A DNA stretch of 64,000 nucleotides from Candidatus Limnocylindrales bacterium (GTDB taxonomy: Bacteria; Chloroflexota; Limnocylindria; Limnocylindrales; CSP1-4): contig JBKKDM010000177.1 of the NCBI GenBank assembly GCA_046707905.1, forward strand, positions 80,877 through 144,876. Direction: 5' to 3'. The position numbers and the translations under genes were made by a program. The notes below the pieces were generated by a model. It was not told the DNA's origin. It saw nothing but the letters and a program-made list of their open reading frames with translations, and ran no database searches. Positions 29,074 to 57,756 of this stretch are shown piece after piece; position 1 is the stretch's first letter, and every line of letters begins with the position of its first letter.

Positions 29074-29077
29074 GACC

Positions 29078-29734: not shown

Positions 29735-30099
29735 ACGAGACCAATCCAGAGCTCGCGGCATTGCTGAATCCGGATCCGGCCACGACGCCCAGATTCCCGC
29801 CCAACAGTCGATACGCGGCCACGCCGATCGCCAGGCTGACAGCCCCGGACGGCCGGGAAGTGCCGTACCTGCGCCGTCGGTTCGTTCCATCTCCGGAGCG
29901 GTTCGCCGTGATCAGTGAACACCGAGTCGAGGAGGGAGATCGACTGGACCGGATCGCGGCGCAGGAGCTGGGTGATCCCGAATTGTTCTGGCGTCTCTGT
30001 GACGCCAACGGAGCGATGCGACCGTCTGAGCTCACGGAAACGATCAGGCGCCCCCTCAGGATCACGCTTCCAGACGGGATCCCCGGAGGCGAACGGTGA
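29731..30099 (+). CDS. LysM-like tail protein (P2 gpX-like)
   Basis: HRVEEGDRLDRIAAQELGDPELFWRLCDANG resembles a LysM motif. Positioned immediately before the gpD-like gene as in P2. GTGA/ATGA overlap. Confidence 0.6.
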   Translation: MNETNPELAALLNPDPATTPRFPPNSRYAATPIARLTAPDGREVPYLRRRFVPSPERFAVISEHRVEEGDRLDRIAAQELGDPELFWRLCDANGAMRPSELTETIRRPLRITLPDGIPGGER

Positions 30100-31771: not shown

Positions 31772-31773
31772 CG

Positions 31774-32094
31774 ATGCCCGGCCCGGTGCTCCACCTCGGC
31801 GCGACCGTCCTGTGCTCCCACGGCGGCCAAGCGACCCCAACGACCCCCAACGCACGGGTCACGGTGAGCGCGCAACCCGTCGCGACGGTCGCCAGCCCGT
31901 ACGGCGTGGTCGGGTGTCCCTTTGTTCCGAACGCCGGAAACGGCCCCTGCACGACGGGCCAGTGGTCAGCCGGCGCTACCCGGGTCTTCGCTGCCGGGCA
32001 GCCCGTCGTCGTGATGAGCGGAACCTCGACTTGCGTGCCGACCGGCACGCCTCTCGCTCCCGTGTCATCCCAGACGCGGGTCATCGCGACCTGA
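31774..32094 (+). CDS. PAAR-like (DUF4280) spike-tip protein
   Basis: 106 aa. HLGATVLCSHGGQATPTTPNARVTV and repeated Cys/Gly/Pro pattern typical of DUF4280. Directly follows the spike gene. Confidence 0.6.
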   Translation: MPGPVLHLGATVLCSHGGQATPTTPNARVTVSAQPVATVASPYGVVGCPFVPNAGNGPCTTGQWSAGATRVFAAGQPVVVMSGTSTCVPTGTPLAPVSSQTRVIAT

Positions 32095-32096
32095 CG

Positions 32097-32462
32097 ATGC
32101 AGCTCAACTACCCGTTCCGATTTGACACCCGGCGACGGACCGCCGGCGCGGACGACGATGAGCACGTCCGCGACCTGATCGAGCAGGTGCTGTTCACCCA
32201 GCTTGGCGAGCGGGTCAATCGACCGGACTTCGGGAGCGGCCTCCTCACCCTCACGTTCGCCCCGATGTCAGACGAGATCGTGGCCGCCACCACGTTCCTG
32301 GTGCGGGGATCGCTCGAGCAATGGCTGGGCGGCCTCATCGCCGTCGAGGACGTCGCCGTCGAACGCGGAGACGGGACGCTGAACGTAACGGTCGCGTACA
32401 CGATGCGCAGAACGGGCGAGCAACGGGTCGCCCAGTTCTCGAGACCTGCGGGCGCGCCATGA
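32097..32462 (+). CDS. Baseplate wedge protein gp25 / GPW family
   Basis: MQLNYPFRFD...VRDLIEQVLFTQLGERVNRPDFGSGLLTLTFAPMSDE fits the GPW/gp25 pattern. Confidence 0.8.
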   Translation: MQLNYPFRFDTRRRTAGADDDEHVRDLIEQVLFTQLGERVNRPDFGSGLLTLTFAPMSDEIVAATTFLVRGSLEQWLGGLIAVEDVAVERGDGTLNVTVAYTMRRTGEQRVAQFSRPAGAP

Positions 32463-35077: not shown

Positions 35078-35079
35078 CC

Positions 35080-40037: not shown

Positions 40038-40056
40038 CGGAACGAGAGGGACCAAG

Positions 40057-43000
40057 ATGAGCGCCGATTACAGCCGCTGGCCCGTCAGGACACGAGACTT
40101 CACCCAGGTTCGGCTCCAACAAGGGCGAGTTCTCACGGATGCGGACTGGAACGAGCAGGCCCTCGTCGCGGAGCGACGCGAGCGGTTCGAGACGATGGAT
40201 GGGCTGGGGCGGGCAGTCGTCCCGACGGCGTCTGCGAACGCCTTCGCGATCACGGTCTCGGGCTCCGACCTTTCGATCGGCGTTGGCCGAGCTTACGTCG
40301 ACGGCCTCCTGGTCGAGAACTACGGCACCCCTGGCGCCTTCGATCCGATCACAGCCGAGCGGATGCCGAGCGGGCCGGTGCTCTATTCAACCCAGCCGTG
40401 GCTCCGCAACCCCCCGAACCTGCCGGCTGCCCCGTACGCCGCATACCTCAAGGCTTGGCAGCGAGAGCGAACAGCCGTCGAGGAACCCAGCCTCATCGAA
40501 CAGGCCCTCGGCGTCGACACCGCGGCCAGACTCCAGACGGTCTGGCAGATCAAGACCGTTTCGACCGGGCCGGCCGCGACGTGCGATGACCTCGATGCGC
40601 TGATCGCGGCGGCAGAGCCAGCGGCCGCCGGGCGGCTTACCAACGGGACCGCGGTCGTTCCGGGCCAGCCGGATCCCTGCCGGGTGGTGCCGGGGGGCGG
40701 CTACACGGGGCTCGAGAATCAGCTTTATCGCGTCGAAATCCACCGCGGCGGCGTCGTCGGTGGGGCGGGAGGTGCAACGTTCAAGTGGTCGCGCGACAAC
40801 GCAACCGTATCGGCGCGCGTCGAATCCATCGGGCAGGCCCGAAATCGCCTGGTGGTCGACTCGCTCGGACCGGACGACGTTCTCTCGTTCCACGATGGCG
40901 ACTGGGTTGAGATCCTCGACGACGATCACGAGCTCGGCGCGCTGCCTGGTGAGCTTCGTCAGATCCAGATCGGCGGGGGAATCGACAAGGCCAGTCGAAC
41001 CATCGTGCTGACCGACGCACTCCCGTCCGCCGCGCAGGCCTTCCCGGTCGACGCCCAGCTCCGAACCCTGCCCGATCGCAACACGCGAATCCGCCGCTGG
41101 GACCAGGCAGGCAAGGTCCTGAACTCTGGCGGGGGAACGGTCACAGACCTCGATGCCGCCAACGCCACCGGCGCAATCCTCGTCCCGGCGTCGAACGTCT
41201 CGGTTCTGCTCGAGCACGGGATCGTGGTCCGCTTCTCCACCGAGGGCCAGGGCCGCTTCCGAACGGGCGACTTCTGGCTCTTTGCCGCGCGGACGGCCGA
41301 TGCCAGCGTGGAGGTCCTGGCGGCCGCACCGCCGCTCGGCGTCCACGCGCATTACGCCCCTCTCGCAATCATCGGGCCCAATCCCAGCGACTGCCGCACG
41401 ATCGTCCCGCCTTTGGCCGAGATGGACACGCTCCACTACCTCGGCGGCGACGGGCAGGAGGCCACCCCGTCCTACCTCCAGCCGGCTCCCATCACGCTTC
41501 CGGTCCCGATCGCGGTTGGCGTCAGCCGTGGCAGCCTCCCGGTGGCAGGCCGCACGGTCCGTTTCACCATCGTCGACTTCCCGAACGCGGGCTCGTTGCC
41601 CGGCGCCGCTCAGGGAACGGTCGAGATCGATACGCCGGTGAACGGCATCATCAGTTTGGTCTGGACGCTCGGGTGGGATGGTCGCGAGAGCCAGAAGAAG
41701 CAGGAAGTGGTGGCCGAGCTCCTCGATGGGGTTGGCCAACCGATAGGGCTGCCGATTCGCTTCTCGGCCCGGCTTCGGACCGCCGACCTGGTCGCCTACG
41801 ATCCCGCCGCGTGTGCCGATCTCGCCGGTGCCGGAACCGTGCAGCAAGCGCTGGATGCACTGTGCGGACGCGACCCGGGCGAGGGCTGCTGCCTCATCGT
41901 GCGGCCGGGTGACCGGCTGCCAGCCGCGATCGAGGAGGCGGCCGCGCGCGGGAAGGGACACGCGTGTCTGTGCCTGACGCCCGGCGTCTATGAGCTGTCC
42001 GAGGACGACTCGAACCAGGTGCGGGAAATCCTCGGGCAGGTGCTGACGCTCACCATCGGCGGTCGCGGCGCACAGATCCTTCTCGGCGCTCCACTCGTCA
42101 TCGAGGGCCTCCAGGCTCTCGATATCCGCGAAGTCCAGATCGCCAACGCGACCGAACAGCTCGACGTCGTGCTCGACATCGTCGGCTGCGGCTCCGTCAC
42201 GCTCGACGGCATCGAAGCCAATCTGACCAATGGCTCCGAGGATTCTCGGGTCGTTCGGATGGCCAGCCCGGAAGCTGGGGAAGCCCCGCCCGCCATCAGG
42301 ATTCGGAACTGCACCATCCAACACGGGAAGCGCGTTCGACGGTTCCCTCGTGAGGAGATCGTCGGGGAGCTTCCCGCGACCATCCGGGCGATGGTCCTCA
42401 TGGCTCGCTCCGAATCGCCGGCCGGCGACACGGTGAGTGAATTCCGAAACCTGATGGACCAGCCCGAGGAGCGCCGTGTCGCTGACGCGGACATGCTCGA
42501 CGCTCTTGCGACTGAGCATCGCGACTTGCTCGATGTCACGACGAATCGTGCCATCAACCGTCTTAGCTCGACGGTCCGTGAAGGCCGCAGCCTGCCGCTC
42601 TCCCGCCTGACGACGCTCCTGGATCGAGCGCGCCTCGTCGGCGACCGCTTTATCCGTGAGTTCGACGCCGGGACGGCCGTGGAGATCGTCGACGGCCGAA
42701 GCGACGTCTGGCTCGATAGCAACCAGCTGCGCGGCAAGGTCATGGTCTATGGCTCCGGCGCACGCCCGGACGCTGAAGCCCGGTTGCAGGAGGTTCTGGA
42801 GGGCATCGACTGGTTCGGGATTGAACCCGGTGCCATGCAGGTTCTTCCGCCCGGGGTCGCAGGACTCCGGCTTTCGAAGAACACGCTGGCTCGTATCACG
42901 ATCGGCGGAGATGGCGTCGAGGCGTTCCTCCGCTTCCTGGAGACGCGCGAGTTTCCGGACGGGCTGCTGTTCGACTCTGTCGTGCTCGACGGCAACGACA

Positions 43001-43215
43001 TGTCCGACCCTCGCCAGGCCGTCCTCGGCCAGCTGGTCTCGCTCGCATCGAACACGATCGGCGGTGGACGAGGCGCCTCAATGGGCTTTGCCTGTGGCAA
43101 CGTCGCGACCATGAGCGGAAACATCGGGACGAATGGCGAATTCCTGCTGGCGGCCTGGGAGAGCGCCGAAGCCGCCAACCGCCGCATGAAGATCCATCCC
43201 GGAACCCATCCGTGA
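40057..43215 (+). CDS. Large tail-fibre / receptor-binding-like protein
   Basis: 1052 aa. N-terminal motif VRLQQGRVLTDADWNEQ, recalled (not checked) as recurrent in eCIS-associated fibre-like proteins. Gly-rich beta-rich body. Last structural gene before cargo. Confidence 0.5.
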   Translation: MSADYSRWPVRTRDFTQVRLQQGRVLTDADWNEQALVAERRERFETMDGLGRAVVPTASANAFAITVSGSDLSIGVGRAYVDGLLVENYGTPGAFDPITAERMPSGPVLYSTQPWLRNPPNLPAAPYAAYLKAWQRERTAVEEPSLIEQALGVDTAARLQTVWQIKTVSTGPAATCDDLDALIAAAEPAAAGRLTNGTAVVPGQPDPCRVVPGGGYTGLENQLYRVEIHRGGVVGGAGGATFKWSRDNATVSARVESIGQARNRLVVDSLGPDDVLSFHDGDWVEILDDDHELGALPGELRQIQIGGGIDKASRTIVLTDALPSAAQAFPVDAQLRTLPDRNTRIRRWDQAGKVLNSGGGTVTDLDAANATGAILVPASNVSVLLEHGIVVRFSTEGQGRFRTGDFWLFAARTADASVEVLAAAPPLGVHAHYAPLAIIGPNPSDCRTIVPPLAEMDTLHYLGGDGQEATPSYLQPAPITLPVPIAVGVSRGSLPVAGRTVRFTIVDFPNAGSLPGAAQGTVEIDTPVNGIISLVWTLGWDGRESQKKQEVVAELLDGVGQPIGLPIRFSARLRTADLVAYDPAACADLAGAGTVQQALDALCGRDPGEGCCLIVRPGDRLPAAIEEAAARGKGHACLCLTPGVYELSEDDSNQVREILGQVLTLTIGGRGAQILLGAPLVIEGLQALDIREVQIANATEQLDVVLDIVGCGSVTLDGIEANLTNGSEDSRVVRMASPEAGEAPPAIRIRNCTIQHGKRVRRFPREEIVGELPATIRAMVLMARSESPAGDTVSEFRNLMDQPEERRVADADMLDALATEHRDLLDVTTNRAINRLSSTVREGRSLPLSRLTTLLDRARLVGDRFIREFDAGTAVEIVDGRSDVWLDSNQLRGKVMVYGSGARPDAEARLQEVLEGIDWFGIEPGAMQVLPPGVAGLRLSKNTLARITIGGDGVEAFLRFLETREFPDGLLFDSVVLDGNDMSDPRQAVLGQLVSLASNTIGGGRGASMGFACGNVATMSGNIGTNGEFLLAAWESAEAANRRMKIHPGTHP

Positions 43216-43231
43216 GTCTGATGTAAGGGCG

Positions 43232-44764
43232 ATGGCGCAAGGTCCCTGGCGCCGGTCGACGAGGTCGCGCAGCTCCCCGCAAGAGCGGCAGGCTGACGCG
43301 ATCGCGGCGATGGTGTCTCGGGCAGATTCGAAGCCCTCATCTGCGCACCGCTCGCGGCAGGGCTTGCCGGCCGTGCTCGCCGGTCGGCTCCGTTCCGCCA
43401 CGGGCTACGACTTCTCCGGCATCCGAGTGCATGCCGGCAGCCAAAGCGCGTCCGAGGCCCGGCGCTTGGGGGCCAGGGCCTTCACGGTGGGCCGAAACGT
43501 CCATCTCGGCAGCGAGGCTGCGACCGATCAGGAAACGCTGTTGGCCCACGAGGCCGTGCACGCGGCCCAGCAGGGAAGCGTGCCGCAGGCCACGGCCTGG
43601 GGCGGACCGTCGACCACGCTGCTGAGGAGCGAGCCGAACATCCCACAGCTCACTCCGGGCGTGGACGCGACCGACAGCTGGCGCGACCTCGTCCGGCAGG
43701 AGGCGTTCATTCCGGACGAACCCACGCTGCGGGCTCGCGGGACCTCGGCCCGCGACCGCTTCCTACAGGCGCGCGAGGGCCAGCGATTGATCAACAACCT
43801 ATGGCAAGCCTCGAATCGAGGCAGGGCCAGTCCTCGTTTCGGCTTGGGTGTCGCGTTCCGAACGCAACTTCCGCCGCAAACTGATGGCCTCGATGCGAGT
43901 GGCTATTTCGAGCCCAACTCCCCGAGCGCTGGGCGCTATACCGTCCACGTCAAGGATGTGCTGCCCCCGATCTCAGGGTCGTTCCGTGTCGGCGGCATCA
44001 CGGGTGAGGGCGTTGGGTACGCGCATACGGATCCCGAATCTGATATGGCCGCCACACTCCACCACGAGCTGGAGCACGTGGAATTCGTTCGAACCGGGGC
44101 CGGAACGATCTGGCCGACCGGACATGGCGACGTCAGCAAGGGTGAAGTCGAGCCTGCCTTTCGTGAGCGCATCGCCGCATTTCAGGGCGACCTGGATGCG
44201 ATCGAGCGGCGTATCCGCGCAGACGCCGTGGCGCGAAACCAGGAGCCGATAGCCGCGGCTCCGGCAACCCGGGACGTCGCGCCGGCCAGGTCCGCGTCAA
44301 CGCCGTCCGATCAGCCGTTCGTGGGCTTCAGGTTGAGTGGCGAGGCCGGTTTGGCCGGTCAGGACGGTCGCCGTTTCGCCGGCGTGGCTGGTGCAGACCT
44401 TGTCCTCGGTCGAATCAGCTCCCTGAATCTCGGCGCGAGAGGCGTGTACTTGACGCCAGATCGCCTCTTCGCCGGTGGTGCCGTTGGCATTCGGTTCGGC
44501 CAATCGGCAGGTGACAGAGCAGGTCAGCGCGTCGAGAATCCGCTCTTCTTCGACATCGAAGCCGGCGTCGTAGGTCAACTCAACGCGACGGAAGCCTCTC
44601 GTGTAATGGATCGCGTCGGACTGTTCGGTTCGGCCGGAGTCGGCCAGGAATACGGGACGTCGGGCAACCGCTTCTTCTGGCGGCTCGGCGGCTTTGTGAT
44701 CGTCTCGGATCGGGGCAATGCATCGGGCGGTGGGACTGCGGGAATCGGTGTGCGGTTCCAATAG
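43232..44764 (+). CDS. DUF4157-domain protein (eCIS cargo/toxin candidate 2) with second HExxH and Gly/aromatic-rich C-terminus
   Basis: DUF4157 signature LAGRLRSATGYDFSGIRVHAGSQSASEARRLGARAFTVGRNVHLGSE...LAHEAVHAAQQ. Second zincin-like motif ATLHHELEHVEF. C-terminal 150 aa rich in G/F/R with alternating hydrophobics (beta-rich). Confidence 0.75.
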   Translation: MAQGPWRRSTRSRSSPQERQADAIAAMVSRADSKPSSAHRSRQGLPAVLAGRLRSATGYDFSGIRVHAGSQSASEARRLGARAFTVGRNVHLGSEAATDQETLLAHEAVHAAQQGSVPQATAWGGPSTTLLRSEPNIPQLTPGVDATDSWRDLVRQEAFIPDEPTLRARGTSARDRFLQAREGQRLINNLWQASNRGRASPRFGLGVAFRTQLPPQTDGLDASGYFEPNSPSAGRYTVHVKDVLPPISGSFRVGGITGEGVGYAHTDPESDMAATLHHELEHVEFVRTGAGTIWPTGHGDVSKGEVEPAFRERIAAFQGDLDAIERRIRADAVARNQEPIAAAPATRDVAPARSASTPSDQPFVGFRLSGEAGLAGQDGRRFAGVAGADLVLGRISSLNLGARGVYLTPDRLFAGGAVGIRFGQSAGDRAGQRVENPLFFDIEAGVVGQLNATEASRVMDRVGLFGSAGVGQEYGTSGNRFFWRLGGFVIVSDRGNASGGGTAGIGVRFQ

Positions 44765-48127: not shown

Positions 48128-49705
48128 ATGGAAGGCTATGGGCGAGCGGAATTGGGGAGTTCCCAAAGGTTGGGCAAGGGTTTTCCCCACTTGAAGCTCG
48201 ACGAGGTCGAAATCACGCTTCGACGAACGGCTCTCGCGGCCTGCGCGTTGACCGCGTTCTTGACCGCGATAGTCGCGACCACAGCCGCCATCGAGGGCCG
48301 CGCGGATGCAGGTGTCGTTGTCGACTCGTCCGGGACGGTGGTCAGTGTTTCGCACACCGGCTTCGCTTGGCGAGATGGCATTCGACCCGGGCAGCATGTC
48401 GTGGTCGCCAGTCGATCCGACGCCGATGGCGGCTGGTCGATGGTCACCGATGGTCCCGCTGGCCGGATTACGTCGCGCGAGGCGCCAATCGTCACCGCGC
48501 TCCGGGAGACACTTCCATTCGCATTGGTGGGCCTCGCCGCAGGGAGCCTGGCCTTCGGGTTCCTCCGGATCAACCGCGAATGGGCCTTGCCTTCGGCCTG
48601 CCTCGCCCTCGTCTGCGCCTCAGTCCCGCTGCTCCTGGCCAACCAGCTCTGGTCAATGCCAGCCGTGGTTCTCGCGTCCGCGGCGCCAGCGGCGTGGGCG
48701 AGTTGGCGGTCGCGACGAACCCCGATTCTTGCGACCTCGATCGCTCTCGGGTCGGCGGCACTCCTCGCCGCTTGGCTTTCCGCCTACGTCAGCGGGGATC
48801 CTGCCGACGAACTCGACCAGGGACGGCGCCTCCTCGCGCTCGGCGGCACTGGCTATCTGATGGTGGAGCGAGTGGTGCAGAACCTGCCGGGCAAGGCTAT
48901 GCGTCTCACCTCCGTTCACGCAGTCCGGGTGATCGGAACGGCGGTGTTCATCGTGGCTGGGTTAGGCCTAATCTATTTCGCGGCCTTCCCGGCGCCAGTA
49001 ATCGCGATCGCGCTCGTTCTCGGCCTCCTGGCCGTGCCGCCGCTCCGAATGGCGCTCGGACGACGCGTTGAACTTGCCCTTCTGGCAGACCTGCGCGACC
49101 ACGTCGCGGCTGATGTCGCGGAAGAGGAGCGGGGCCGGTTGGCCCGCGAGCTGCATGACGCGCCGCTTCAGGAGCTCTCCGCCGTCATTCGGCGGCTTGA
49201 ACTCGTGCCCGAAGCAAGCTCCGAAACGACCGCCCTGCGAGTCGTCGCCGACCAACTTCGATCCGTGGCAGTTGGGCTGCATCCCCCGATGCTCGACGAC
49301 CTTGGCCTCGGCCCTGCCCTCGACTTCCTCGCAGAGCAACTAACCTGCGAGGAGACGGCTGTTGCGGTCGCGGTAAGCGATGCGACCGGTTTGGACGCCG
49401 GTAGCCGGCCGCCCAAATCGGTGGAATTCGCTCTTTACCGAATCGCCCGTGAGGCCGTGACCAACGCGCTCCAGCACGCGGATGCGAGGAATATCACGAT
49501 TGGGGGCCGGATCGGTCGAGACTCAATCGATCTCCTCGTTGTCGACGATGGCCGCGGTCTCGTCGATGGCGCCAGCCACGAGGCCATCGGCCGGGGTCGA
49601 TTCGGTCTCGCATCGATGCGCCGGCGTGCGAACTCGATCGGGGCCGAGTTGTCTCTCCAGGGCACCCGAGCCGGTACGAGGGTAGCCGTCGCTTGGCGCC
49701 GGTGA
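48128..49705 (+). CDS. Sensor histidine kinase, NarX/NarL-type (HisKA_3 plus HATPase_c), multi-TM sensor
   Basis: H-box RELHDAPLQELSAV. ATPase motifs AVTNALQHADARN and VVDDGRGL. Five to six TM segments in the N-terminus. True start probably downstream of the 20-nt motif at 48175. Confidence 0.75.
   Translation: MEGYGRAELGSSQRLGKGFPHLKLDEVEITLRRTALAACALTAFLTAIVATTAAIEGRADAGVVVDSSGTVVSVSHTGFAWRDGIRPGQHVVVASRSDADGGWSMVTDGPAGRITSREAPIVTALRETLPFALVGLAAGSLAFGFLRINREWALPSACLALVCASVPLLLANQLWSMPAVVLASAAPAAWASWRSRRTPILATSIALGSAALLAAWLSAYVSGDPADELDQGRRLLALGGTGYLMVERVVQNLPGKAMRLTSVHAVRVIGTAVFIVAGLGLIYFAAFPAPVIAIALVLGLLAVPPLRMALGRRVELALLADLRDHVAADVAEEERGRLARELHDAPLQELSAVIRRLELVPEASSETTALRVVADQLRSVAVGLHPPMLDDLGLGPALDFLAEQLTCEETAVAVAVSDATGLDAGSRPPKSVEFALYRIAREAVTNALQHADARNITIGGRIGRDSIDLLVVDDGRGLVDGASHEAIGRGRFGLASMRRRANSIGAELSLQGTRAGTRVAVAWRR
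48149..48193 (+). promoter_or_regulatory. Inverted pair of motif copies (GAATTGGGGAGTTCCC ... CAAGGGTTTTCCCCACTTG)
   Basis: Lies in the 5' region of the histidine kinase gene. Confidence 0.35.
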
Positions 49706-50322
49706 TCCGGATCGCAATCGTTGACGACCACCCCATCGTTCTGCATGGCCTGCGTACCGCGCTATCAACCGTCGATGACTTCGAGATTACGGCGAGCGGC
49801 GGGACGCTTGCGGAAGCTCGCGAGATTGCCGATCGCTCCGACGTCGAGGTGCTCCTGCTCGATATCCGCCTTCCGGACGGAAACGGGCTCGAGCTTCTGA
49901 GCGAGATTTCGCGTCGCGGTCGACCGGCCGTCCTTGTCCTGTCGACCTTCCGGTCACGCCAGTACGTCGCCGCTGCATTGCGCTTCGGCGCGAACGGGTT
50001 CCTTCTCAAGACCACCCCGCTCAAGGAACTGATTGCCGCAATTCGATCGATCGCTGACGGCGGGACAGCGTTCAGTAATGAGCAGATCCGGGAAGGTCAG
50101 GGCGGCTTCGTGAAATTGACGGATCGTGAGCGGGACATCGTGCGTTTGGTTCTGGAGGGAAAGTCGAACGACGAGATTGCCGTAGTGCTCAGCACGTCGC
50201 GGAAGACGGTGGAGTATCACCTCTCGAGAATGTATGAACGGTTCGGGATCATGACCCGGGTCGAACTCGCGCTACGGGCTGATCACGATGGCTGGCTCGA
50301 CATCAAGCAGGAGGCCACGTAG
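49693..50322 (+). CDS. Response regulator, NarL/FixJ (LuxR-type HTH) family
   Basis: Receiver IRIAIVDDHPIVLHGLRTAL...VLLLDIRLPDGNGLELL. LuxR HTH LTDRERDIVRLVLEGKSNDEIAVVLSTSRKTVEYHLSRMYERFG. Confidence 0.85.
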   Translation: MAPVIRIAIVDDHPIVLHGLRTALSTVDDFEITASGGTLAEAREIADRSDVEVLLLDIRLPDGNGLELLSEISRRGRPAVLVLSTFRSRQYVAAALRFGANGFLLKTTPLKELIAAIRSIADGGTAFSNEQIREGQGGFVKLTDRERDIVRLVLEGKSNDEIAVVLSTSRKTVEYHLSRMYERFGIMTRVELALRADHDGWLDIKQEAT

Positions 50323-50478: not shown

Positions 50479-51945
50479 TTGGGGATCGGCTCGCCATGGG
50501 AGGGCCAGGGCGTGACGGCGAGTTCGCTAGCAAGGACTGTGGCCGGGGCTATCTACCCCGCGCTTGGGGTCATCACCGCTCTGGAGCTGTGGTTGTGGGC
50601 GAGGGTCGCGGCCGGAGATGTCGAGGCCGCAACGCCTGAGCTCCTGACGGACGGCGCCTTCTTTCTCATCGTCATCGGAACGATCGCTGCCGGGCGCGGC
50701 CTGGCGCAAGCACGATGGGGCGAGGCCTATCTAGGCGCATTACTTGCGACGGGGCCGGTGGTTCCCTTCCTGGTGAGCCTCGGAGTGCTTCTTCTCTATC
50801 TCCGTCAAGGGCCGGGCGACCACGCGAGTGCGGTGTACGTCGGCTTGGCGGCAGGCCTGGGAGCATGGATCTTCGGAGCCCCGCTCTTCCAGTGGATGGC
50901 CCGCGCCGATACCGCCCAGTCGCGGAGCTACGGCGATCTCGTGATGCGAACCCGCCGGGCTGCCGAGCGATTGGCCCGCATCGAGGCCGCCGGGGTGAGG
51001 CCAATCGATGGGTCGGTCGGCATCATCCGGACCGATCTGCAGTACCTCCAGGGGGAGCTCGGCCTCTCACCAGGGACGAACATTGGCGCGGGCCTCCGGT
51101 ACGCCAGTGCCGTCGGCTACATGAATCTGTGGCGGGCCGTGCACCGTGTCGAAGAGCGGCTCCTGACAATGGAGTCACTGCCCGAGCTGTTCGGCGCCGC
51201 GCTCTACAACTCGTTGCGCTTGCGCGGTGTGCCCAACGGGACGCTTCTAACCAAGAAGCTCCATGGGGCGTTGGCGACCTTCGGGCCGGCCGCCAAGCCC
51301 GCTATCTGCGACCAAGATGTTCAGCCACAAGACGATCCGACAGCGCACGAGACGGCGAGGGCCGTGATCAGCGAGGTTGTGCACGCGCTCAACGTCTACC
51401 TCGACGACTCGTGGGAGCGGCTGATACGCCAGCGGAACCGCCTCCTTCGGACGATTCTCGTAACGTCCACCGTCGGCTTGCTCCTGATCTCGCTCGCCGT
51501 CCTGTTCCATGTGCCCAAGTCGGCGCTGGGAGCGGCAGGCCTCTTCTACCTTGTTGGCGCGCTCGTCGGGCTCTTCGCCCAGCTTCGCGTCGAAACGCGC
51601 GCCGGGCTGGCCGTGGACGACTATGGTCTCTTTGAGGCCAGGCTGCTGGCAACGCCACTTCTCTCTGGGCTGGCTGCCGTTGCCGGTGTGGTGCTCGTGG
51701 CGTTCACGCCGGGACTCGCTGGACTGGGTGCTGATGCCGCGAAGACGACGGTGCACCTTGCCGCTGCGCTGTCGCTGGAGGACAACCCCGGCGGATTGGT
51801 TGCGGCAGCGATCTTCGGCTTGACCCCGCAGCTCTTGATTGGCTGGCTAAGCAAGCAGGCGGACGACGAAATGACTCGCCTGAAGAATGTAAATGCGGGC
51901 GAGAAGTCAGCGCCACGACAGGACGAAGAGTCGGCAGCGACATAG
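50479..51945 (+). CDS. Polytopic membrane hypothetical protein
   Basis: At least 8 hydrophobic helices. The 20-nt motif lies 77 nt upstream. Alternative TTG/GTG starts. Confidence 0.5.
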   Translation: MGIGSPWEGQGVTASSLARTVAGAIYPALGVITALELWLWARVAAGDVEAATPELLTDGAFFLIVIGTIAAGRGLAQARWGEAYLGALLATGPVVPFLVSLGVLLLYLRQGPGDHASAVYVGLAAGLGAWIFGAPLFQWMARADTAQSRSYGDLVMRTRRAAERLARIEAAGVRPIDGSVGIIRTDLQYLQGELGLSPGTNIGAGLRYASAVGYMNLWRAVHRVEERLLTMESLPELFGAALYNSLRLRGVPNGTLLTKKLHGALATFGPAAKPAICDQDVQPQDDPTAHETARAVISEVVHALNVYLDDSWERLIRQRNRLLRTILVTSTVGLLLISLAVLFHVPKSALGAAGLFYLVGALVGLFAQLRVETRAGLAVDDYGLFEARLLATPLLSGLAAVAGVVLVAFTPGLAGLGADAAKTTVHLAAALSLEDNPGGLVAAAIFGLTPQLLIGWLSKQADDEMTRLKNVNAGEKSAPRQDEESAAT

Positions 51946-51958
51946 CGCGTAGCGCAGG

Positions 51959-51977
51959 CCCGGGTTTTCCCCAGTTG
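51959..51977 (+). promoter_or_regulatory. Conserved 20-nt motif copy (CCCGGGTTTTCCCCAGTTG)
   Basis: 112 nt upstream of the DUF4157-M14-M15 cargo gene. Confidence 0.4.
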
Positions 51978-52070
51978 CGAGAGGGCGCATAACGGCTCAG
52001 TCTGAGTTCCGCACACCGCGCCGGTAGCCCATCGACCCGAGCCACCTCCCGGGCGGCCTTTGGATCGCCG

Positions 52071-54350
52071 ATGCCCACATTCCAGACAGCTCGCGGAAAC
52101 CTCACAGCGGCAGGGCGGCAAGTCCCCTCCGAGGTTCGTGGGCTGCGCGTTTCAAGAGTCGGTGACGCTGCAGAGACATCGGCGGAGGCGGCCGGGTCGC
52201 TTCCACCACTCGAACGTCCGAAAAACCAGCGGGAGACCCTGCCACGAGCCCCCAGCCGATATGCCCCCTCGTGGTTGGGTCCTGGCCAGCCTCTTGACCC
52301 AGCGCTCCGGCGACGATTCGAGGCGCGGCTTGACCATTCCTTCGCGGACATCCGTATCCACGACGACACCAGGGCGAATGCTTCTGCGATCGCGCTTCAG
52401 GCCCGCGCGTACGCAGTAGGCCGCCACGTTGCTTTCGCCCCCGGGTACTACGAGCCGACAACCGAAGCCGGATTCGCTCTGCTCGGTCATGAGCTCGCAC
52501 ATGTCCGGCGCCAGGCAGGCGAAGGCACTGCGATCGACCGGGCACCGATGCGCGATGCTGAGCTCGCGCGGCTGGATCGCGAGCTCGCCGCAGGTGTTCC
52601 GCTCACCCAGTCAAACGGCGAGATCGGTGCAGCTGCTGATGCTGGGACCACGGTTCCACCCGGCGAAGACACGAGCCTGCCAATCGTGATGCGCGTCTAT
52701 CGCGCTGCCGCGGCGCTCATTCCGACGACTGGGACGCCCGCGGTCCCGTCTGCGCCTTCGGCACCTGCTCCGCCGCCTGGGCCTGCCGGCACGCGCAGCG
52801 ACGCCGGTGTCCCATACAGCGACGCCGCTCCTACCGACGGGCCGCCGGTCGCCGCGATGCCGGCCGAAGCACCGACTGCCGTTGGCCCGACGTCGTCTTC
52901 GCCGCCTCCGGCCAAAACCCCTCCGACTCCTCCACCTCAGCGCGCTCTTGTGGTTGGCGGCGTCCACGGTGACGAGCGCGGACCCCTGCAGCTGGTCGAT
53001 GCCCTCGATCGCGAACTAGCGGCCGGCGCCCGCCGGGACTTCGATACGTTTGTCATTCCCCGGATGAATCCATGGGGAGTCGCCAACGGCGCGCGCGAAA
53101 ACCGCCGCGGTGTGGACCTCAACCGCAACTTCCCAGGCCTCCGCGGGTTTCCCGCCGCCGCCGGACCAGTCCCGGCCGAGCAACCGGAGGTTCGGGCGGT
53201 TCGCCGGGTCATCGAAATCCTTCGGCCGGTGCGGATCCTGGCGCTTCACGCGATTGGCGGCGCCGAGAAAGGAGGCGTCTTTGCCGATCCCGTCGAGGGT
53301 GCCGCCCGAGATCTGGCCGCTCGAATGGCGTACGCGATGGGCCCCGCGAATGTCCGGGGCAACGTCCTCCGAAATGGTGCCTTTAGCGCCCGGTACCCAG
53401 AGTCCGCGTCGGTCAGCGTCACGACATCGCAGAGCAGCCTTGGCGCATGGGCATCGGCACCGACAGCCGTCGGTGGACGGGGAACTGCCGTGATTACACA
53501 CGAAGTGCCCGACAAGCCAGCCCTGGCCGCAACCGGTTCCCGCTCAGTGGCGAGCATCATGCCGGGTCTTCGCGAGTTCCTCGTCAGCAACGGAGGTGCG
53601 GCATCGGCCGCCGATGGCGCCCTCCGGGCGGCGGTCACCGACGCCTTCCTCACGGGCGAGCAGACGACTCCTGCTGAAGCCAGGCTACTTGCCGACATCA
53701 GCGGCGTCGTCAACAGTCGCTTTGCCGACATGGCGGCCCACTACAGCGCCGTTTGGCTACCAGCAAATCGCGGTCCTGGACTGCCGCCCAGACTCTCGAT
53801 CGTCGGAGGCCAAGGCGTCCGCCGTTTCCCGGACCAGGCGGCGATCGTCCGGGGTCAGCTCGGGGCGCTGACCGCCACGAGCGCGGACGCGCAGATCCGC
53901 GCCGAGATCGAACGCGTTCTCACAACCCGGTCCATGCCGGGCTTCTCGCGCCATCACTGGGGAACGGACATCGACATCGTCTCGGCGGACCGTGTGCGCT
54001 GGACCGGTACCGGGGACCTGGTCGCGCTGATCCCGTTCATTCGCGATCACGCACCCCGGTTCGGCTTCTTCAATCCGTATGCAGGCCCGAGCGGCACGCC
54101 CGCTAGTGGCGGGTTCCCGAGTCCGGCAGCCCCCCACTACCTGGAGGAGCCGTGGCATCTCTCCTACGCCCCGATCGCCACGGTGTTGCAAGCCGAATGG
54201 GCGCGTCGAATCACCGGAGCTGTGCTTGACGGCTTGGTAACACGGACAGCCGCGGCCATCCGCGGGCCCATCCCGCAGGCGACCATGGAGCGCGTGCTTC
54301 GTGGTATGGGCTTGACGAGCTATCAGACCAACGTGGCGTCGCCTCCGTAG
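52071..54350 (+). CDS. DUF4157-domain cargo protein fused to M14 zinc-carboxypeptidase-like and M15 (VanY / D,D-peptidase-like) domains: putative peptidoglycan-hydrolysing eCIS effector (candidate 3)
   Basis: DUF4157 signature LDPALRRRFEARLDHSFADIRIHDD...ARAYAVGRHVAFAPG...LLGHELAHVRRQ. M14 motifs VVGGVHGDERGPLQ (HxxE), IPRMNPWG, GVDLNRNFPG. M15-like SRHHWGTDIDIVS. Pro/Ala-rich linker between the domains. Confidence 0.8.
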   Translation: MPTFQTARGNLTAAGRQVPSEVRGLRVSRVGDAAETSAEAAGSLPPLERPKNQRETLPRAPSRYAPSWLGPGQPLDPALRRRFEARLDHSFADIRIHDDTRANASAIALQARAYAVGRHVAFAPGYYEPTTEAGFALLGHELAHVRRQAGEGTAIDRAPMRDAELARLDRELAAGVPLTQSNGEIGAAADAGTTVPPGEDTSLPIVMRVYRAAAALIPTTGTPAVPSAPSAPAPPPGPAGTRSDAGVPYSDAAPTDGPPVAAMPAEAPTAVGPTSSSPPPAKTPPTPPPQRALVVGGVHGDERGPLQLVDALDRELAAGARRDFDTFVIPRMNPWGVANGARENRRGVDLNRNFPGLRGFPAAAGPVPAEQPEVRAVRRVIEILRPVRILALHAIGGAEKGGVFADPVEGAARDLAARMAYAMGPANVRGNVLRNGAFSARYPESASVSVTTSQSSLGAWASAPTAVGGRGTAVITHEVPDKPALAATGSRSVASIMPGLREFLVSNGGAASAADGALRAAVTDAFLTGEQTTPAEARLLADISGVVNSRFADMAAHYSAVWLPANRGPGLPPRLSIVGGQGVRRFPDQAAIVRGQLGALTATSADAQIRAEIERVLTTRSMPGFSRHHWGTDIDIVSADRVRWTGTGDLVALIPFIRDHAPRFGFFNPYAGPSGTPASGGFPSPAAPHYLEEPWHLSYAPIATVLQAEWARRITGAVLDGLVTRTAAAIRGPIPQATMERVLRGMGLTSYQTNVASPP

Positions 54351-54415
54351 GGATGGCGCGCGGCCACCCATCGCCTCTCCGGCCCGTCAGGGTGTCTGGA
54401 AGTGCGCCGGGCAGT

Positions 54416-54435
54416 CCTAGGGAACTCCCCGATTG
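54416..54435 (+). promoter_or_regulatory. Conserved 20-nt motif copy (CCTAGGGAACTCCCCGATTG)
   Basis: 94 nt upstream of four-TM protein gene. GCGACGAT follows 17 nt downstream. Confidence 0.45.
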
Positions 54436-54509
54436 TCACGGCGACGCCCGAGCGCGACGATGCGTAGGCGCCCTACGCACCTGGGCGATCGCAAGTTGGA
54501 GGCGCCGTC

Positions 54510-55283
54510 GTGACCGATCAGCCGACGCGTGATCCCCAGGTTACGGCGAACTCCGCTCGAATTCGAGCGCGGAGCTATCTGAACGTCGAGATGCTCCTCC
54601 TCGGCGTTTCGGTGGTGCTCCTTGGCGGGGCTGCGATCCTGCTCGCCCACTACGGGTTCACGTCTCGACCCGAAGTCGTGACGACGATGGTGATTCTCCT
54701 CGGAATCGTCGTCCTCCTGGTGGCGATCGGTGCGTTCGTCGCACTGCTCCGCGGATTTGACCTTGCCGACCGCAGGTACGCCCTCGGTCTCCCTGACGGA
54801 AGCGTTCGGGCGATCCTCGCACTCGGGCTTCTCCTCGTTTTCGCCATGATCTCCGTGTTCCTCTATTGGGACGCCGCGCACCCGCCGCTGCTGCAGTCTG
54901 TTGGCATCACCGCCGAGCAGTTGGCCAAATTCGAGGACGGCACCATCATCGCGATTGAGCCCGGTCCTACCGTGGGCACCTTTAACGTTCGAACGGTCGC
55001 GACGAATGCCAATGCCCAGCAGCTAGGACAGCAACTGGTGACACTCCTTGGCACCCTCGTGACAGCGATCGCCGCCTTCTACTTCGGCGCGACCTCCGTT
55101 GCCTCGGCGACGAGCACTTCGCGCGAAGGCGCGACGTCCGACGGCGAGCGGCCATTGGGGAAGACAGACCCCTCCGAGGCTAGCGAGGGCCAGGGGGAAA
55201 TGTCGCAATCCGAACTGGCTGCCGCTCGCCGGGCTGAACTCAAGAAGCAGGTGCCGAAGGTCCCGCCGCTGCGGCAGGAGTAG
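54510..55283 (+). CDS. Four-TM membrane protein (candidate immunity protein for cargo 3)
   Basis: GTG start with the 20-nt motif 94 nt upstream. TM helices MLLLGVSVVLLGGAAILLA, VVTTMVILLGIVVLLVAIGAFVALL, ILALGLLLVFAMISVFLYW and LVTLLGTLVTAIAAFYFG. Confidence 0.5.
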   Translation: MTDQPTRDPQVTANSARIRARSYLNVEMLLLGVSVVLLGGAAILLAHYGFTSRPEVVTTMVILLGIVVLLVAIGAFVALLRGFDLADRRYALGLPDGSVRAILALGLLLVFAMISVFLYWDAAHPPLLQSVGITAEQLAKFEDGTIIAIEPGPTVGTFNVRTVATNANAQQLGQQLVTLLGTLVTAIAAFYFGATSVASATSTSREGATSDGERPLGKTDPSEASEGQGEMSQSELAAARRAELKKQVPKVPPLRQE

Positions 55284-55342: not shown

Positions 55343-57139
55343 TTGATGTTTGACGCGATACGTCGGCCGGTATCTGGCCTCTCGGCTGTTGGATTCGCTC
55401 CGTCACCTCGTCGCGGAACGCCCATTCCCGATGCGCTGCGATTGTCGATGGAGGCGTCTTTCGGGCACAGCTTCGCCAACGTTCGCGTCCACGAGGGCCC
55501 CGAAGCTCGGCGAGCGGCGGCATCCATCGGGGCCGCGGCGTTCACGACCGGCGACGACGTTGCGATCGGGGCGGGCCAAGCGCTCGACAGCCCTATGGGG
55601 CACAGACTCGTAGCCCATGAGCTCGGCCATGTCCTGCAGCATCGACGTCATCCGCGCCTGGTTGAACACGCGCGCGTGTCCGGACGCGGTGGTGCCGCCG
55701 AACGCGAGGCCACGTCCCTTGCCGTCGCAGCCTTCCCCCATCCGTTGGCGCGCCGACGTGGCGCCCGGTCGCCAGTCCGCCTCGAAGCCGTCGAGATCGG
55801 CGCAGGAGTCGATCGGCAGGATCTCGACGCTGGAGTTGGGGGCGCGGGTCCAGCGCCGCCCGCTACCACTCCCTCTCCAGGCGCCTCGGCGAGCGATGTC
55901 GCCGTGCTGGTCAAGGCATGGCTTGATTACGCCGTGCCGGGAGTGGCAGCTGGGATCGGCGATCCCGATCGGGCCTACGCCATCCTTCGAAGTCTCGACT
56001 CAGACAAGCTCCTTGCGGTGCTTGGGGAGCTGGATCGGCTTGCTTACCTCGCCGTCCTCGAAGGCTACAGCGGTGCAGGGCGGGCGGATCCGCGAACCGA
56101 GCCCTTCTTCCTGGCGGTGAAGTATCGCGAGCACGACTTGGCTGATGCCGATCGAGCTCGTGGACCCTCCAAGATCTCCAGCCTCGATCCGGGCGACCAA
56201 GCCGCTGTTCGCAGGTATCTTGCCCCGCTCGGACAGCACCGGGTCGAAATGTTCGTCAGTGGAGCAGACGCCGAATCGACCCGACTCGCGGGTCTCACCC
56301 TCGACGCGCTCGAGGCGAAGCGGAAGGCGGCGGAGGCGCAGGCGAAGGTGGAGGCCGACGCGGCCGCCAAGGCTGCCGGCAAGGCCCCGCCGGCGACGGC
56401 TCCTAAGGTCGACCTGGGAACGGTCGTTGCAAAGGATGTCGACAAGCTCAAGATCCAACCGCTCGCCACCGACGCTTGGACCAAGCTCCCGGACCCGACG
56501 AAAGCCGATTGGACGAACCGCCGGGCGCCGGCGGCGATCGCGGCGATCATGGCGAGCATCAAGGGCACGCCGCTAGAGGCCACGATGACAGGGCATTCCA
56601 TCGTGTTTGAACCACTGAAGATGCTGGAGCGCGGCGGCTATGCCTACCAGGATGGTCCGAACCTGGTCGGGGGCACGGCGTTCATCGCAGACGCCGAACG
56701 CGACCCGAAGAGCGTGTGGGGGATTCTGGCCCACGAGATCGGCGGCCACTTCGAGTACGGGACCACCTACGCGGACGCCATTGCGAAGAAGGTCCTGGCG
56801 AGGCTGCCCGAGACCGACCGTAAGCGCTACTCGGAGACGAAAGAGGGCCGGGCTGCCTTCTTCGACACGTACATCTACTCCGAGACCGAGATTTTCTCTG
56901 CCCTGCGCCAACGCCAATACGATGTTCCAGTCAGTGGCCCCGCACCAAGCCATGGCGCGATCAAGCCCGACGCCAATATTGCTGGACGCCTCGACACCTT
57001 GGCCGCCGCATATCCCCCCCACGTCGTCAACGCGATCCTTATCGAGCTGAATCGCCGCGTCCAGGCAAGTTCCAACATCCTTGATCGCGACAAGGCGTAC
57101 TTCGTCGCGGAAGCGAAGAAGCGGGGGCATCCCCTTTGA
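55343..57139 (+). CDS. DUF4157-domain protein (eCIS cargo/toxin candidate 4) with C-terminal HEIGGH zincin-like motif
   Basis: DUF4157 signature LRLSMEASFGHSFANVRVHEGPEARRAAASIGAAAFTTGDDVAIG...LVAHELGHVLQH. Coiled-coil (EAKRKAAEAQAKVEADAAAKAAGKA). C-terminal ILAHEIGGHFEYG. Confidence 0.75.
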   Translation: MMFDAIRRPVSGLSAVGFAPSPRRGTPIPDALRLSMEASFGHSFANVRVHEGPEARRAAASIGAAAFTTGDDVAIGAGQALDSPMGHRLVAHELGHVLQHRRHPRLVEHARVSGRGGAAEREATSLAVAAFPHPLARRRGARSPVRLEAVEIGAGVDRQDLDAGVGGAGPAPPATTPSPGASASDVAVLVKAWLDYAVPGVAAGIGDPDRAYAILRSLDSDKLLAVLGELDRLAYLAVLEGYSGAGRADPRTEPFFLAVKYREHDLADADRARGPSKISSLDPGDQAAVRRYLAPLGQHRVEMFVSGADAESTRLAGLTLDALEAKRKAAEAQAKVEADAAAKAAGKAPPATAPKVDLGTVVAKDVDKLKIQPLATDAWTKLPDPTKADWTNRRAPAAIAAIMASIKGTPLEATMTGHSIVFEPLKMLERGGYAYQDGPNLVGGTAFIADAERDPKSVWGILAHEIGGHFEYGTTYADAIAKKVLARLPETDRKRYSETKEGRAAFFDTYIYSETEIFSALRQRQYDVPVSGPAPSHGAIKPDANIAGRLDTLAAAYPPHVVNAILIELNRRVQASSNILDRDKAYFVAEAKKRGHPL

Positions 57140-57756
57140 CGACCCCCGATCCCGAGGTGCGCCGCGAAATCTTCGCGCTGGCGAATGACCATCCGGACCC
57201 TCCGATCGCAGCTATGGATGCCCTCCGGTCGCGAGGTCGCGAAGTGGTTCCGGTGCTACTCGAGGCGATCCGAGCGGATGAGTTCGGCGGGGTCGCCCTC
57301 GGACGACTCCTCGACGTCGTGACGGAGCTTGACCCCGATGCCGCTGTCGCCGCGGCAACCCTTCTCGTTGAGGATCCTCGCGGCAACGTTGCGCAAGCGG
57401 CCGTTCGCACCCTCGGGGTAGTCGGTTCTCCGGCCGCGCGCCAGGCCCTGCAAACGATTGCCGGTGGTTCTGATGCTGACGCCGCCGCCTATGCACGGAT
57501 CCTGCTCGGGCCTAGGGTTCTCCCCAATAGCAATCTCGTCGCTGCACGCCGAGATTCGTGGCAACCTCGACCCCGATGGTCGGGTCGCACCCGCGGGGTT
57601 CCCGAAATGGCGAAGACGAGTCCGTGGCATTCAGTGAAGGCAGACATTCACCACAACAACACGAACTGCAACACGGGCAACAACATCGAGAAGGAGAACC
57701 GGCGCGAAGGGACGGGCGGGAAGCCGCTGTGTGCCGAGTGCGCACGGCTGCCATAA
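57136..57756 (+). CDS. HEAT-repeat (PBS-lyase-like) protein, possible immunity factor; the C-terminal 49 aa may be a separate small Cys/His ORF
   Basis: TTGA overlap start. Repeats VVPVLLEAIRAD...AVAAATLLVEDPRGNVAQAAVRTLGVVGSPAARQAL. The in-frame ORF continues across a copy of the 20-nt motif (57511) to MAKTSPWHSVKADIHHNNTNCNTGNNIEKENRREGTGGKPLCAECARLP, which has an ATG at about 57607. Confidence 0.45.
   Translation: MTTPDPEVRREIFALANDHPDPPIAAMDALRSRGREVVPVLLEAIRADEFGGVALGRLLDVVTELDPDAAVAAATLLVEDPRGNVAQAAVRTLGVVGSPAARQALQTIAGGSDADAAAYARILLGPRVLPNSNLVAARRDSWQPRPRWSGRTRGVPEMAKTSPWHSVKADIHHNNTNCNTGNNIEKENRREGTGGKPLCAECARLP
57511..57530 (+). promoter_or_regulatory. Conserved 20-nt motif copy (CCTAGGGTTCTCCCCAATAG), nominally intragenic
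   Basis: Inside the 3' part of the HEAT-protein ORF, 96 nt upstream of the ATG of the small Cys/His ORF (about 57607). Confidence 0.4.

Follow-up and report, generated by a model that had tools for sequence, protein, structure and literature searches.

Proteins that carry DUF4157 at the N-terminus and a toxin at the C-terminus mark the toxins of extracellular contractile injection systems (eCISs) (PMC8213781, PMC11297309). Two DUF4157 proteins of AlgoCIS, Cgo1 and Cgo2, fill the lumen of the tube (PMC8894135), and secretion that depends on the sheath has been shown in a haloarchaeon for DUF4157 proteins with genes remote from the cluster of the contractile injection system (CIS) (PMC11566945). 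A wall target is on record for eCIS toxins as well: EAT10, a peptidoglycan hydrolase by its description, gains 10^4-fold in toxicity when placed in the periplasm (PMC8213781). Here we describe a protein of 759 aa encoded in a 64,000-nt stretch of DNA from Candidatus Limnocylindrales bacterium (contig JBKKDM010000177.1 of assembly GCA_046707905.1, positions 80,877 to 144,876, forward strand; hereafter the window), in which DUF4157 is followed by two predicted zinc peptidase domains, one of the M14 clan and MpaA-like, the other of type M15B and VanY/LdcB-like. The window also encodes a complete CIS, and we think it probable, at odds of roughly 60%, that the protein is a CIS cargo, or effector, which trims the stem peptides of peptidoglycan after injection.

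The effector gene is an open reading frame on the + strand with an ATG start, and when genes were called independently on the source contig, both it (52071..54350) and its downstream neighbour (54510..55283) were returned. The encoded modules follow one another in the order disordered N-terminus, DUF4157/eCIS_core, Pro/Ala linker, M14 and M15B; they are listed here with the evidence for each, which includes the predicted local distance difference test (pLDDT) of an AlphaFold2 model.

52071..54350, + strand: effector gene, 759 aa, DUF4157, M14 (MpaA-like), M15B (VanY/LdcB-like); open reading frame, Pfam, alignment and model.
52071..52289, + strand: N-terminal region, aa 1-73, predicted disordered, rich in A, R, P, G and S; pLDDT and composition.
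52290..52520, + strand: DUF4157/eCIS_core domain, aa 74-150, with an HExxH made up by H140, E141 and H144; Pfam.
52548..52706, + strand: family-specific conserved helix and beta-hairpin, aa 160-212 (LDRELAAG.PLTQ..GEIG...ED.SLPI); pLDDT and family alignment.
52716..52925, + strand: Pro/Ala-rich disordered linker, aa 216-285; composition, and pLDDT below 50 over aa 218-275.
52932..53600, + strand: M14-clan zinc carboxypeptidase domain, MpaA type, about aa 288-510; Pfam, PDB sequence search and Foldseek.
53793..54173, + strand: M15B zinc peptidase domain, about aa 575-701, with S626-x-H628-x-x-G631-x-x-x-D635 and E693-x-x-H696; Pfam and profile against PDB.
54174..54347, + strand: C-terminal helical extension, aa 702-759, with the conserved end ...FQTNVAPSP; alignment and model.

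A first-pass annotation, made from the letters alone, had proposed this three-module architecture, and it is real: the eCIS_core, M14-clan and VanY profiles of Pfam all exceed their gathering cut-offs on the protein, the predicted catalytic residues are conserved in an alignment of 34 homologues (33-65% identity), and the strings on which the proposal had been based were all found in their places (FEARLDHSFADIRIHDD, GHELAHVRRQ, HGDE at aa 299-302, NPWG at 333-336, DLNRNFPG at 349-356 and SRHHWGTDIDIV at 626-637). The AlphaFold2 model of the full protein has a mean pLDDT of 83; most 10-residue blocks in both enzyme domains reach 90 or more, and values below 50 are confined to aa 1-18, 20-24, 48-63 and 218-275. 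No hydrophobic segment was found in a Kyte-Doolittle scan of the 759 residues, and the protein thus has no signal peptide and no membrane anchor.

The DUF4157 domain (PF13699 eCIS_core, formerly DUF4157) was matched over aa 74-150 with E=1.3e-24 and 86.6 bits against a cut-off of 22, covering profile positions 1-77 of 79. The protein had been said to begin with it; the domain is there, but it is preceded by a 73-residue region of low confidence, in which pLDDT is 52-68 between the segments that fall below 50. By likeness to Cgo1 and Cgo2 (preprint 10.64898/2026.05.27.728243), these 73 residues are a candidate loading sequence. The HExxH of the domain (H140-E141-L-A-H144) is invariant across the 34 homologues and could form a third active site. 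The helix and hairpin that follow (aa 160-212) are modelled with block-mean pLDDT values of 88-95 and are conserved across the family alignment; the same block is also present in a protein that has no PF13699 match (P0169). A disordered linker of about 60 residues separates the hairpin from the enzyme domains, on one of which it might dock, or which it might plug, like a pro-segment. The Pro/Ala character given to the linker in the first-pass annotation is borne out by its composition, with 21 prolines and 14 alanines among the 70 residues of aa 216-285.

The first enzyme domain was recognized by three profiles, with M14-clan matches spanning aa 290-394: PF24827 (AstE_AspA_cat; E=7.5e-9, 35.8 bits, cut-off 25), PF10994 (DUF2817; E=1.8e-6, 28.2 bits, cut-off 23) and PF00246 (Peptidase_M14; E=2.9e-5, 24.3 bits, cut-off 21.6). 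When a profile of the family was compared with PDB sequences, the best M14 relatives were the MpaA entries 5hxd (E=6.7e-11) and 4axv, with which HGDE, DLNRNFP and the third histidine align; MpaA is accordingly the best solved relative by sequence and by fold, since Foldseek with the full model against PDB also ranked 5hxd and 4axv first, with a probability of 1.00. In the latter search the whole 237-241-residue MpaA chain was aligned, indicating that the M14 domain is complete. Seven residues of the domain are invariant among the 34 homologues (H299, E302, R342, N351, R352, H393 and E478); H299, E302 and H393 are the proposed metal ligands, and R342, N351-R352 and E478 are candidates for substrate binding or catalysis, E478 being the putative catalytic glutamate from its position and invariance. 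MpaA, with about 20% identity to the domain, differs from it in being a small stand-alone enzyme of cytoplasmic recycling; related M14 domains also occur fused to Amidase_2, Peptidase_M74 and S13 domains, as found in a protein search.

The second enzyme domain matched PF02557 (VanY) over aa 581-701 (E=7.2e-11, 42.4 bits, cut-off 25), and no other M15 family of Pfam was found on the protein at E<=0.1. Its best relatives, when the family profile was compared with PDB, were VanY and LdcB, carboxypeptidases of D,D and L,D type (M15B; 5hnm, 5zhf, 4ox5, 4mph), whose SxHxxGxxxD and ExxH motifs align with it residue for residue. A profile built from the C-terminal part only reached VanY 5hnm at E=2.9e-5, with PGFSRHHWGTEIDV aligned to VanY PGTSEHQLGLAVDI and EPWH to EPWH; the effector motifs S626-R-H628-H-W-G631-T-D-I-D635 and E693-P-W-H696 thus correspond to the VanY strings SEHQLGLAVD and EPWH. 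S626, R627, H628, D635, E693, W695 and H696 are invariant among the 34 homologues; by analogy with VanY, H628, D635 and H696 would be the zinc ligands and E693 the catalytic glutamate. Two features set the domain apart from VanY and LdcB: the eighth position of the motif, the A of SxHxxGxAxD, is D or E in the effector family, and a helical extension of about 60 residues follows at the C-terminus. When 1.84 billion representatives were scanned exhaustively with HMMER, the same VanY module, together with the helical linker upstream of it and the C-terminal tail, was found in four proteins with an N-terminal transmembrane (TM) anchor, two of which carry SH3_3. The occurrence of the VanY module in such membrane-anchored proteins, together with the fusion of related M14 domains to wall hydrolases, points to the assembled wall, and not to some unrelated substrate, as the target.

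About 40 protein clusters share the full-length architecture at 31-65% identity in a search of 5.8 billion proteins, and this DUF4157-M14-M15B family spans at least three phyla. At E<=1e-30 the HMMER scan returned 44 family representatives, as against more than 8000 sheath homologues. Public annotations call the members 'predicted deacylase', 'succinylglutamate desuccinylase family' or 'DUF4157 domain-containing', and no member was found among the 2.9 million viral contigs of IMG/VR. One variant has two DUF4157 domains (1407 aa) and another has a Peptidase_M91-like region before DUF4157 (1165 aa; 23.7 bits, just under the cut-off of 25); these variants (P0152, P0182) indicate that the N-terminal side is shuffled as modules, with the M14-M15B pair fixed. 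To collect family loci, contigs were scanned with the full-length alignment, which was flooded by the generic M14 pattern VDLNRNFP and gave only two loci (L002, L003); a metagenome scan with a rebuilt C-terminal alignment (A2) gave 27 loci, and 36 family loci in total were compared.

The CIS cluster of the window is complete and lies entirely on the + strand:

17611..44764, + strand: CIS cluster that the effector presumably serves; family matches.
17611, + strand: BTAD regulator, at the head of the cluster.
19148..20785, + strand: sheath.
20798, + strand: gp19 tube, followed by T4_baseplate-like, Pvc16_N and AAA ATPase genes.
26246, + strand: DUF4157 protein, 606 aa.
29078, + strand: CIS_tube.
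31241, + strand: Phage_base_V spike, followed by gp25.
32321..35077, + strand: baseplate-J protein of the text, one of two Baseplate_J proteins.
40057..43215, + strand: DUF6519 fibre protein, 1052 aa.
43232..44764, + strand: DUF4157 protein, last gene of the cluster.

Its gene content, with a DUF6519 fibre, Pvc16_N and an AAA ATPase like Pvc15, is what an eCIS would have; the name eBAP5 has been given to DUF6519 as a domain that attaches tail fibres to the baseplate in eCISs (PMC12923769). The reading of the effector as CIS cargo, which had been put forward from the DUF4157 domain, is backed by comparative genomics. When CIS proteins of the window and of two further loci were used as queries against the family loci, CIS structural genes turned up in the flanks of 16 of 21 non-redundant loci that have 10 kb or more of sequence; with the window included, they lie within 10 kb in 17 of 22. 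The family gene often lies in the operon itself, as it does in at least six loci (L091, L092, L112, L114, L116 and L118), where the order is AAA ATPase, one to three other DUF4157 genes, the family gene, and then CIS_tube, spike and gp25. These operons belong to the same clade as that of the window; the baseplate-J protein, for example, matches that of L114 at E=0. In the window, the slot after the AAA ATPase (26246..29073) is occupied by the 606-aa DUF4157 protein and a 367-aa protein without a family match, and in many related operons the same slot holds a DUF4157-M14-VanY gene. It seems that in the lineage of the window the peptidase gene has moved out of the operon.

We infer the loading of the effector into particles, its substrate, the order of its two reactions and its target organism as follows. 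The CIS encoded at 17.6-44.8 kb would deliver the protein to the envelope of a bacterium, where the M15B domain would shorten penta- and tetrapeptide stems and the M14 domain would then take the third residue; stems trimmed in this way could not be cross-linked, and the wall would weaken as the cell grows. VanY removes D-Ala from pentapeptides and LdcB from tetrapeptides, and MpaA cleaves the gamma-D-Glu-mDAP (meso-diaminopimelic acid) bond, releasing the C-terminal diamino acid of a tripeptide; it is by analogy with these enzymes that the activities are assigned, as predictions, to the 759-aa protein. An effector without an export signal cannot reach the wall of its producer unaided, which may explain why no conserved immunity gene accompanies the family.

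The expectation that the protein is loaded draws on its layout, which is that of a proven tube-lumen cargo: Cgo1 and Cgo2 likewise combine a disordered N-terminus, DUF4157 and a variable C-terminus (PMC8894135), and are encoded with CIS genes, much as several DUF4157 paralogues stand side by side after the ATPase gene in many family loci. The C-termini are nonetheless unrelated, the effector gene of the window is outside the operon, the sheaths are distant, and loading has been shown only for Cgo1 and Cgo2. The DUF4157 toxins of the eCIS survey (PMC8213781) share with the effector an N-terminal DUF4157, a long linker, a C-terminal enzyme and a position on the 3' side of the eCIS, and EAT10 differs in lacking DUF4157 and in being described as a peptidoglycan hydrolase, not as a zinc carboxypeptidase. 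The nearest functional analogues appear to be the L,D-carboxypeptidase effectors Tae5/Tlde1 of the T6SS (type VI secretion system), which, according to the preprint that describes them, trim stems so that cross-linking is prevented, are toxic in the periplasm, and, for Tae5, are paired with a cognate immunity protein (bioRxiv 10.1101/2020.02.18.954545). The effector family, unlike Tae5, has no conserved immunity partner. The fold of Tae5 is YkuD-like, unlike M14 and M15. In VgrG2b of P. aeruginosa a DUF4157-type HExxH domain is itself a periplasm-acting antibacterial toxin (PMC6899460); there the domain is fused to the T6SS spike and toxicity is due to the HExxH domain alone, whereas in the effector DUF4157 stands before two peptidases. 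The T6SS-like CIS of Halogeometricum borinquense (PMC11566945) has one of the two sheaths closest to that of the window, secretes the products of orphan DUF4157 genes and provides a precedent for a protective downstream gene, but it is archaeal, membrane-anchored and contact-dependent, its paper makes no mention of peptidoglycan, and a downstream partner is not conserved in the effector family.

Several observations weigh against a wall-directed CIS cargo. A distance of 7.3 kb, with seven called genes, separates the effector gene from the last CIS gene, with opposite-strand genes and a two-component system, a histidine kinase/LuxR regulator pair, in between, and the two closest homologues (64-65% identity) and a Plasticicumulans gene are orphans with no CIS structural gene within 10 kb. 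The NCBIfam equivalog for MpaA, NF007897, scores 38.3 bits, far under its cut-off of 157, so that the M14 domain is MpaA-like and not an MpaA orthologue, and a fold search with the isolated M15-domain model did not reach significance for VanY or LdcB. The natural substrate of MpaA is a free cytoplasmic tripeptide, the M14 clan also holds deacylases that do not act on peptidoglycan, and exopeptidases leave existing cross-links in place, making rapid lysis unlikely. When the four DUF4157 proteins of the window were aligned, no common sequence could be seen ahead of the DUF4157 domain; this is a weak negative, since for all but the effector the start codon is uncertain. DUF4157 also occurs outside eCISs, in T6SS effectors and in mycobacterial Rv2189c (PMC6899460, PMC12067865), and the loading of AlgoCIS cargo needs the disordered N-terminus, not DUF4157 (preprint 10.64898/2026.05.27.728243).

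The relationships of the CIS raise the question of where it fires. Among solved structures, and judged from pairwise scores rather than a tree, the window sheath is closest to two others, 9ezm of the haloarchaeal T6SS-like system (254 bits) and, aligned end to end, that of the cytoplasmic CIS of S. coelicolor (8bky/9gtp, 250 bits); with Afp, PVC and AlgoCIS the match is confined to the C-terminal third (135-160 bits). The baseplate-J protein has a single solved relative, likewise from S. coelicolor. Candidatus Limnocylindrales, of the Chloroflexota, supplies the best named homologue both for the sheath (90% identity) and for a four-TM protein encoded next to the effector (66%), and CISs of the Chloroflexota have been proposed to act cytoplasmically (PMC12998442). 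The CIS could, then, fire in or from the producer and push its peptidase cargo across the producer's own membrane into its own wall, leading to regulated death or to lysis that releases particles; the effector has no export signal and no conserved immunity partner, as would fit this, and its fixed slot in the operon suggests a standing function and not a swappable toxin. We hold such self-directed action to be unlikely, though worth serious consideration. The 1052-aa DUF6519 protein, with its tail-fibre attachment domain, argues for an outward, target-binding particle, as do Pvc16_N and the Pvc15-like AAA ATPase, which loading-competent eCISs have; and the rarity of the family in the clade, 44 representatives against more than 8000 sheath homologues, speaks against a general requirement. 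Certain clear homologues are said to be missing from the Streptomyces CIS, and we take these to be tail-fibre components. A rather doubtful idea, which covers both directions of firing, is that the DUF4157-M14-M15B protein is no interchangeable toxin but a wall-crossing device dedicated to one widespread CIS clade, the counterpart of a phage tail-associated lysin. Carried in or on the tube, it would thin the stems locally so that the tube passes a thick wall, whether on the way into a target or, with firing that is cytoplasmic or anchored as in relatives from Streptomyces, Chloroflexota and haloarchaea, on the way out of a monoderm producer. Such a device would account for the conserved slot between ATPase and tube-initiator genes, for the lack of an immunity partner and for the three intact metallopeptidase sites.

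The place of action could also be the cytoplasm of the target, in which the effector would degrade UDP-MurNAc-pentapeptide and recycled murein peptides and so act as a precursor-depleting toxin. MpaA, the closest solved or curated relative of the M14 domain, is a cytoplasmic enzyme that acts on free murein tripeptide, and late precursors of peptidoglycan are the substrates of VanY; the cytoplasm can be reached by eCIS and T6SS tubes, and the effector has no secretion signal. This is improbable in our judgement, because the producer would be exposed to active enzyme in its own cytoplasm, yet no conserved inhibitor gene is found, and because the closest M15 relatives without DUF4157 are membrane-anchored, two of the four with SH3_3, as extracytoplasmic wall enzymes, and related M14 domains are fused to wall hydrolases. 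Lastly, the gene might have nothing to do with the CIS here and encode a stand-alone wall-remodelling or phage-lysin-like enzyme, with a flanking membrane protein as its holin and DUF4157 as an incidental part. The closest homologues are indeed orphan genes, multi-TM proteins are encoded on both sides, and endolysins, among which M15 peptidases are common, also lack signal peptides. The family is, however, strongly associated with CIS operons across phyla and absent from the IMG/VR viral contigs, the flanking membrane proteins are not conserved by it and, with 257 and 488 aa, greatly exceed typical holins in size, and the predicted activities are those of exopeptidases, which are not lytic; the holin-endolysin reading was rejected on these grounds, and a stand-alone role is most improbable. 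A CIS cargo directed at the wall of another bacterium remains our preferred reading.

Two membrane proteins flank the effector gene, and copies of a 20-nt motif lie before the effector and the downstream gene:

51958..51978, + strand: copy of the motif aGGGTTcTCCCCAnTTG, here GCCCGGGTTTTCCCCAGTTGC, 113 nt before the effector start; motif search.
54416..54436, + strand: copy of the motif aGGGTTcTCCCCAnTTG, here CCTAGGGAACTCCCCGATTGT, 94 nt before the four-TM gene; motif search.
54510..55283, + strand: protein of 257 aa, four predicted TM segments; open reading frame with a GTG start.

The downstream protein has four hydrophobic segments (aa 28-46, 61-79, 101-119 and 176-194, Kyte-Doolittle), as had been described, and had been nominated as a candidate immunity protein; as such it would guard the producer or its siblings from the peptidases. 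Its gene is directly 3' on the same strand, the DUF4157 toxins of a haloarchaeal CIS are neutralised by downstream partner genes (PMC11566945), and a 55-residue loop of extracytoplasmic size could in principle meet the enzyme outside the membrane. This nomination fails, however, on comparison: no homologue was found by tblastn in the 36 family loci, the 64-65%-identical closest relatives included. When open reading frames within 3 kb of 31 family genes were clustered all against all, the only recurrent neighbours were DUF4157 paralogues (19 loci) and CIS structural genes, with no conserved immunity or chaperone gene beside the family, and the upstream and downstream genes of eight family loci are unrelated to each other. 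Toxin and immunity genes are usually tightly coupled, whereas here a gap of 159 nt separates the effector stop from the four-TM gene, which has its own copy of a motif found before many unrelated genes, at least 10 others in the window. The protein itself has no match in Pfam, NCBIfam or PADLOC; it has homologues in 58 clusters, the best named one at 66% identity, and the three best-covered homologue loci (62-81% identity; L087, L088, L089) contain genes for TIR_2, KwaA, KAP_NTPase, PIN, a resolvase and regulators, and none for DUF4157, M14 or VanY lies within 10 kb. The homologues are solitary in variable regions, with neighbours that include GerE and BTAD genes and surroundings that resemble defence islands or mobile elements. 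An immunity function is quite improbable, and the gene is most likely an unrelated accessory gene of the Limnocylindrales lineage; the case warns that a gene should not be taken for an immunity gene just because it is adjacent.

The other flanking gene, 126 nt 5' of the effector gene and with its own copy of the motif, encodes a 488-aa protein with about eight hydrophobic segments (50479..51945, + strand), for which no match was found in Pfam, NCBIfam or PADLOC and no homologue in any fetched family locus. Whether the four-TM or the eight-TM protein could be a membrane adaptor like CisA, a single-pass protein with a periplasmic domain resembling a substrate-binding protein (PMC12237407), was also considered and rejected, as neither has homologues near other family or CIS loci.

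The motif does lie 94 nt upstream of the four-TM start, its copy beginning at 54416 and the gene at 54510, as the first-pass annotation had it. At up to three mismatches it has eight matches in the window, compared with none in 100 shuffles; a looser pattern gave 11 copies, and a repeat search added a variant copy at 12844. The positions are 2459(-), 8303(-), 12844(-), 17334(-), 17504(+), 48148(-), 48174(+), 50402(+), 51958(+), 54416(+), 57511(+) and 62605(+), of which 17334/17504 and 48148/48174 form divergent pairs, and copies were also seen in related metagenomic contigs (9847(+) in L082, 7140(+) in L089). The copy at 9847 of L082 lies 154 nt 5' of the gene of the closest homologue, from another sample. 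Each copy points to the gene 3' of it, about 90-200 nt away; the genes behind the copies include those for the BTAD regulator, a trypsin-like protein, a RES-domain protein, a histidine kinase, the eight-TM protein at 50479, the effector and the four-TM protein, among others. With at least 11 copies in the window, before unrelated genes on both strands, the motif was discarded as a specific link between the four-TM gene and the effector; it looks like a promoter or operator-like element used across the lineage, and its placement suggests that the genes behind its copies are each transcribed singly. Scans of 50300-55500 for sigma-70 promoters and intrinsic terminators gave nothing above chance. 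Copies lie upstream of the genes for the RES-domain protein (7494..8180, - strand), the trypsin-like protein (15878..17476, - strand) and the histidine kinase/LuxR pair (48128..50322, + strand), which may form one regulon with the CIS regulator and the effector; the BTAD regulator and a LuxR-type response regulator are themselves encoded near motif copies.

A second orphan DUF4157 protein is encoded downstream (55343..57139, + strand; 598 aa, eCIS_core E=2e-24), with a C-terminal part that has the string AHEIGGH and no assigned family. A HEAT-repeat gene (57136..57756, + strand) overlaps its stop by 4 nt, and this coupled pair looks more like a toxin and its partner than do the effector and the four-TM gene. 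PADLOC and NCBIfam scans of the two proteins gave no matches.

The payload had been called unusual for an eCIS, which overstates the case: eCIS toxins that attack peptidoglycan (EAT10, pesticin) and fusions of DUF4157 to toxins have been published (PMC8213781), so that DUF4157-tagged CIS effectors, wall-directed ones included, are already familiar as a kind, and the architecture itself recurs in about 40 clusters. What stands of that claim is the pairing of M14 with M15B, of which no description as a CIS payload was found in the searchable literature, neither of the EAT papers mentioning VanY or carboxypeptidase; nor was a description found there of the conserved slot that the family has in operons of one clade, in at least three phyla.

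Biochemical activities are known for very few CIS effectors, and most environmental CIS clades have yet to be assigned a target, be it bacteria, eukaryotes or the producer itself. The CIS clade of this family is found in Chloroflexota, Pseudomonadota and Bacteroidota, with a sheath related to the Streptomyces and haloarchaeal systems. That a recurrent cargo has two catalytic domains of a kind specific to peptidoglycan stems is an argument for bacterial walls as the site at which this clade acts, and the effector would be a natural antibacterial payload for engineered particles.

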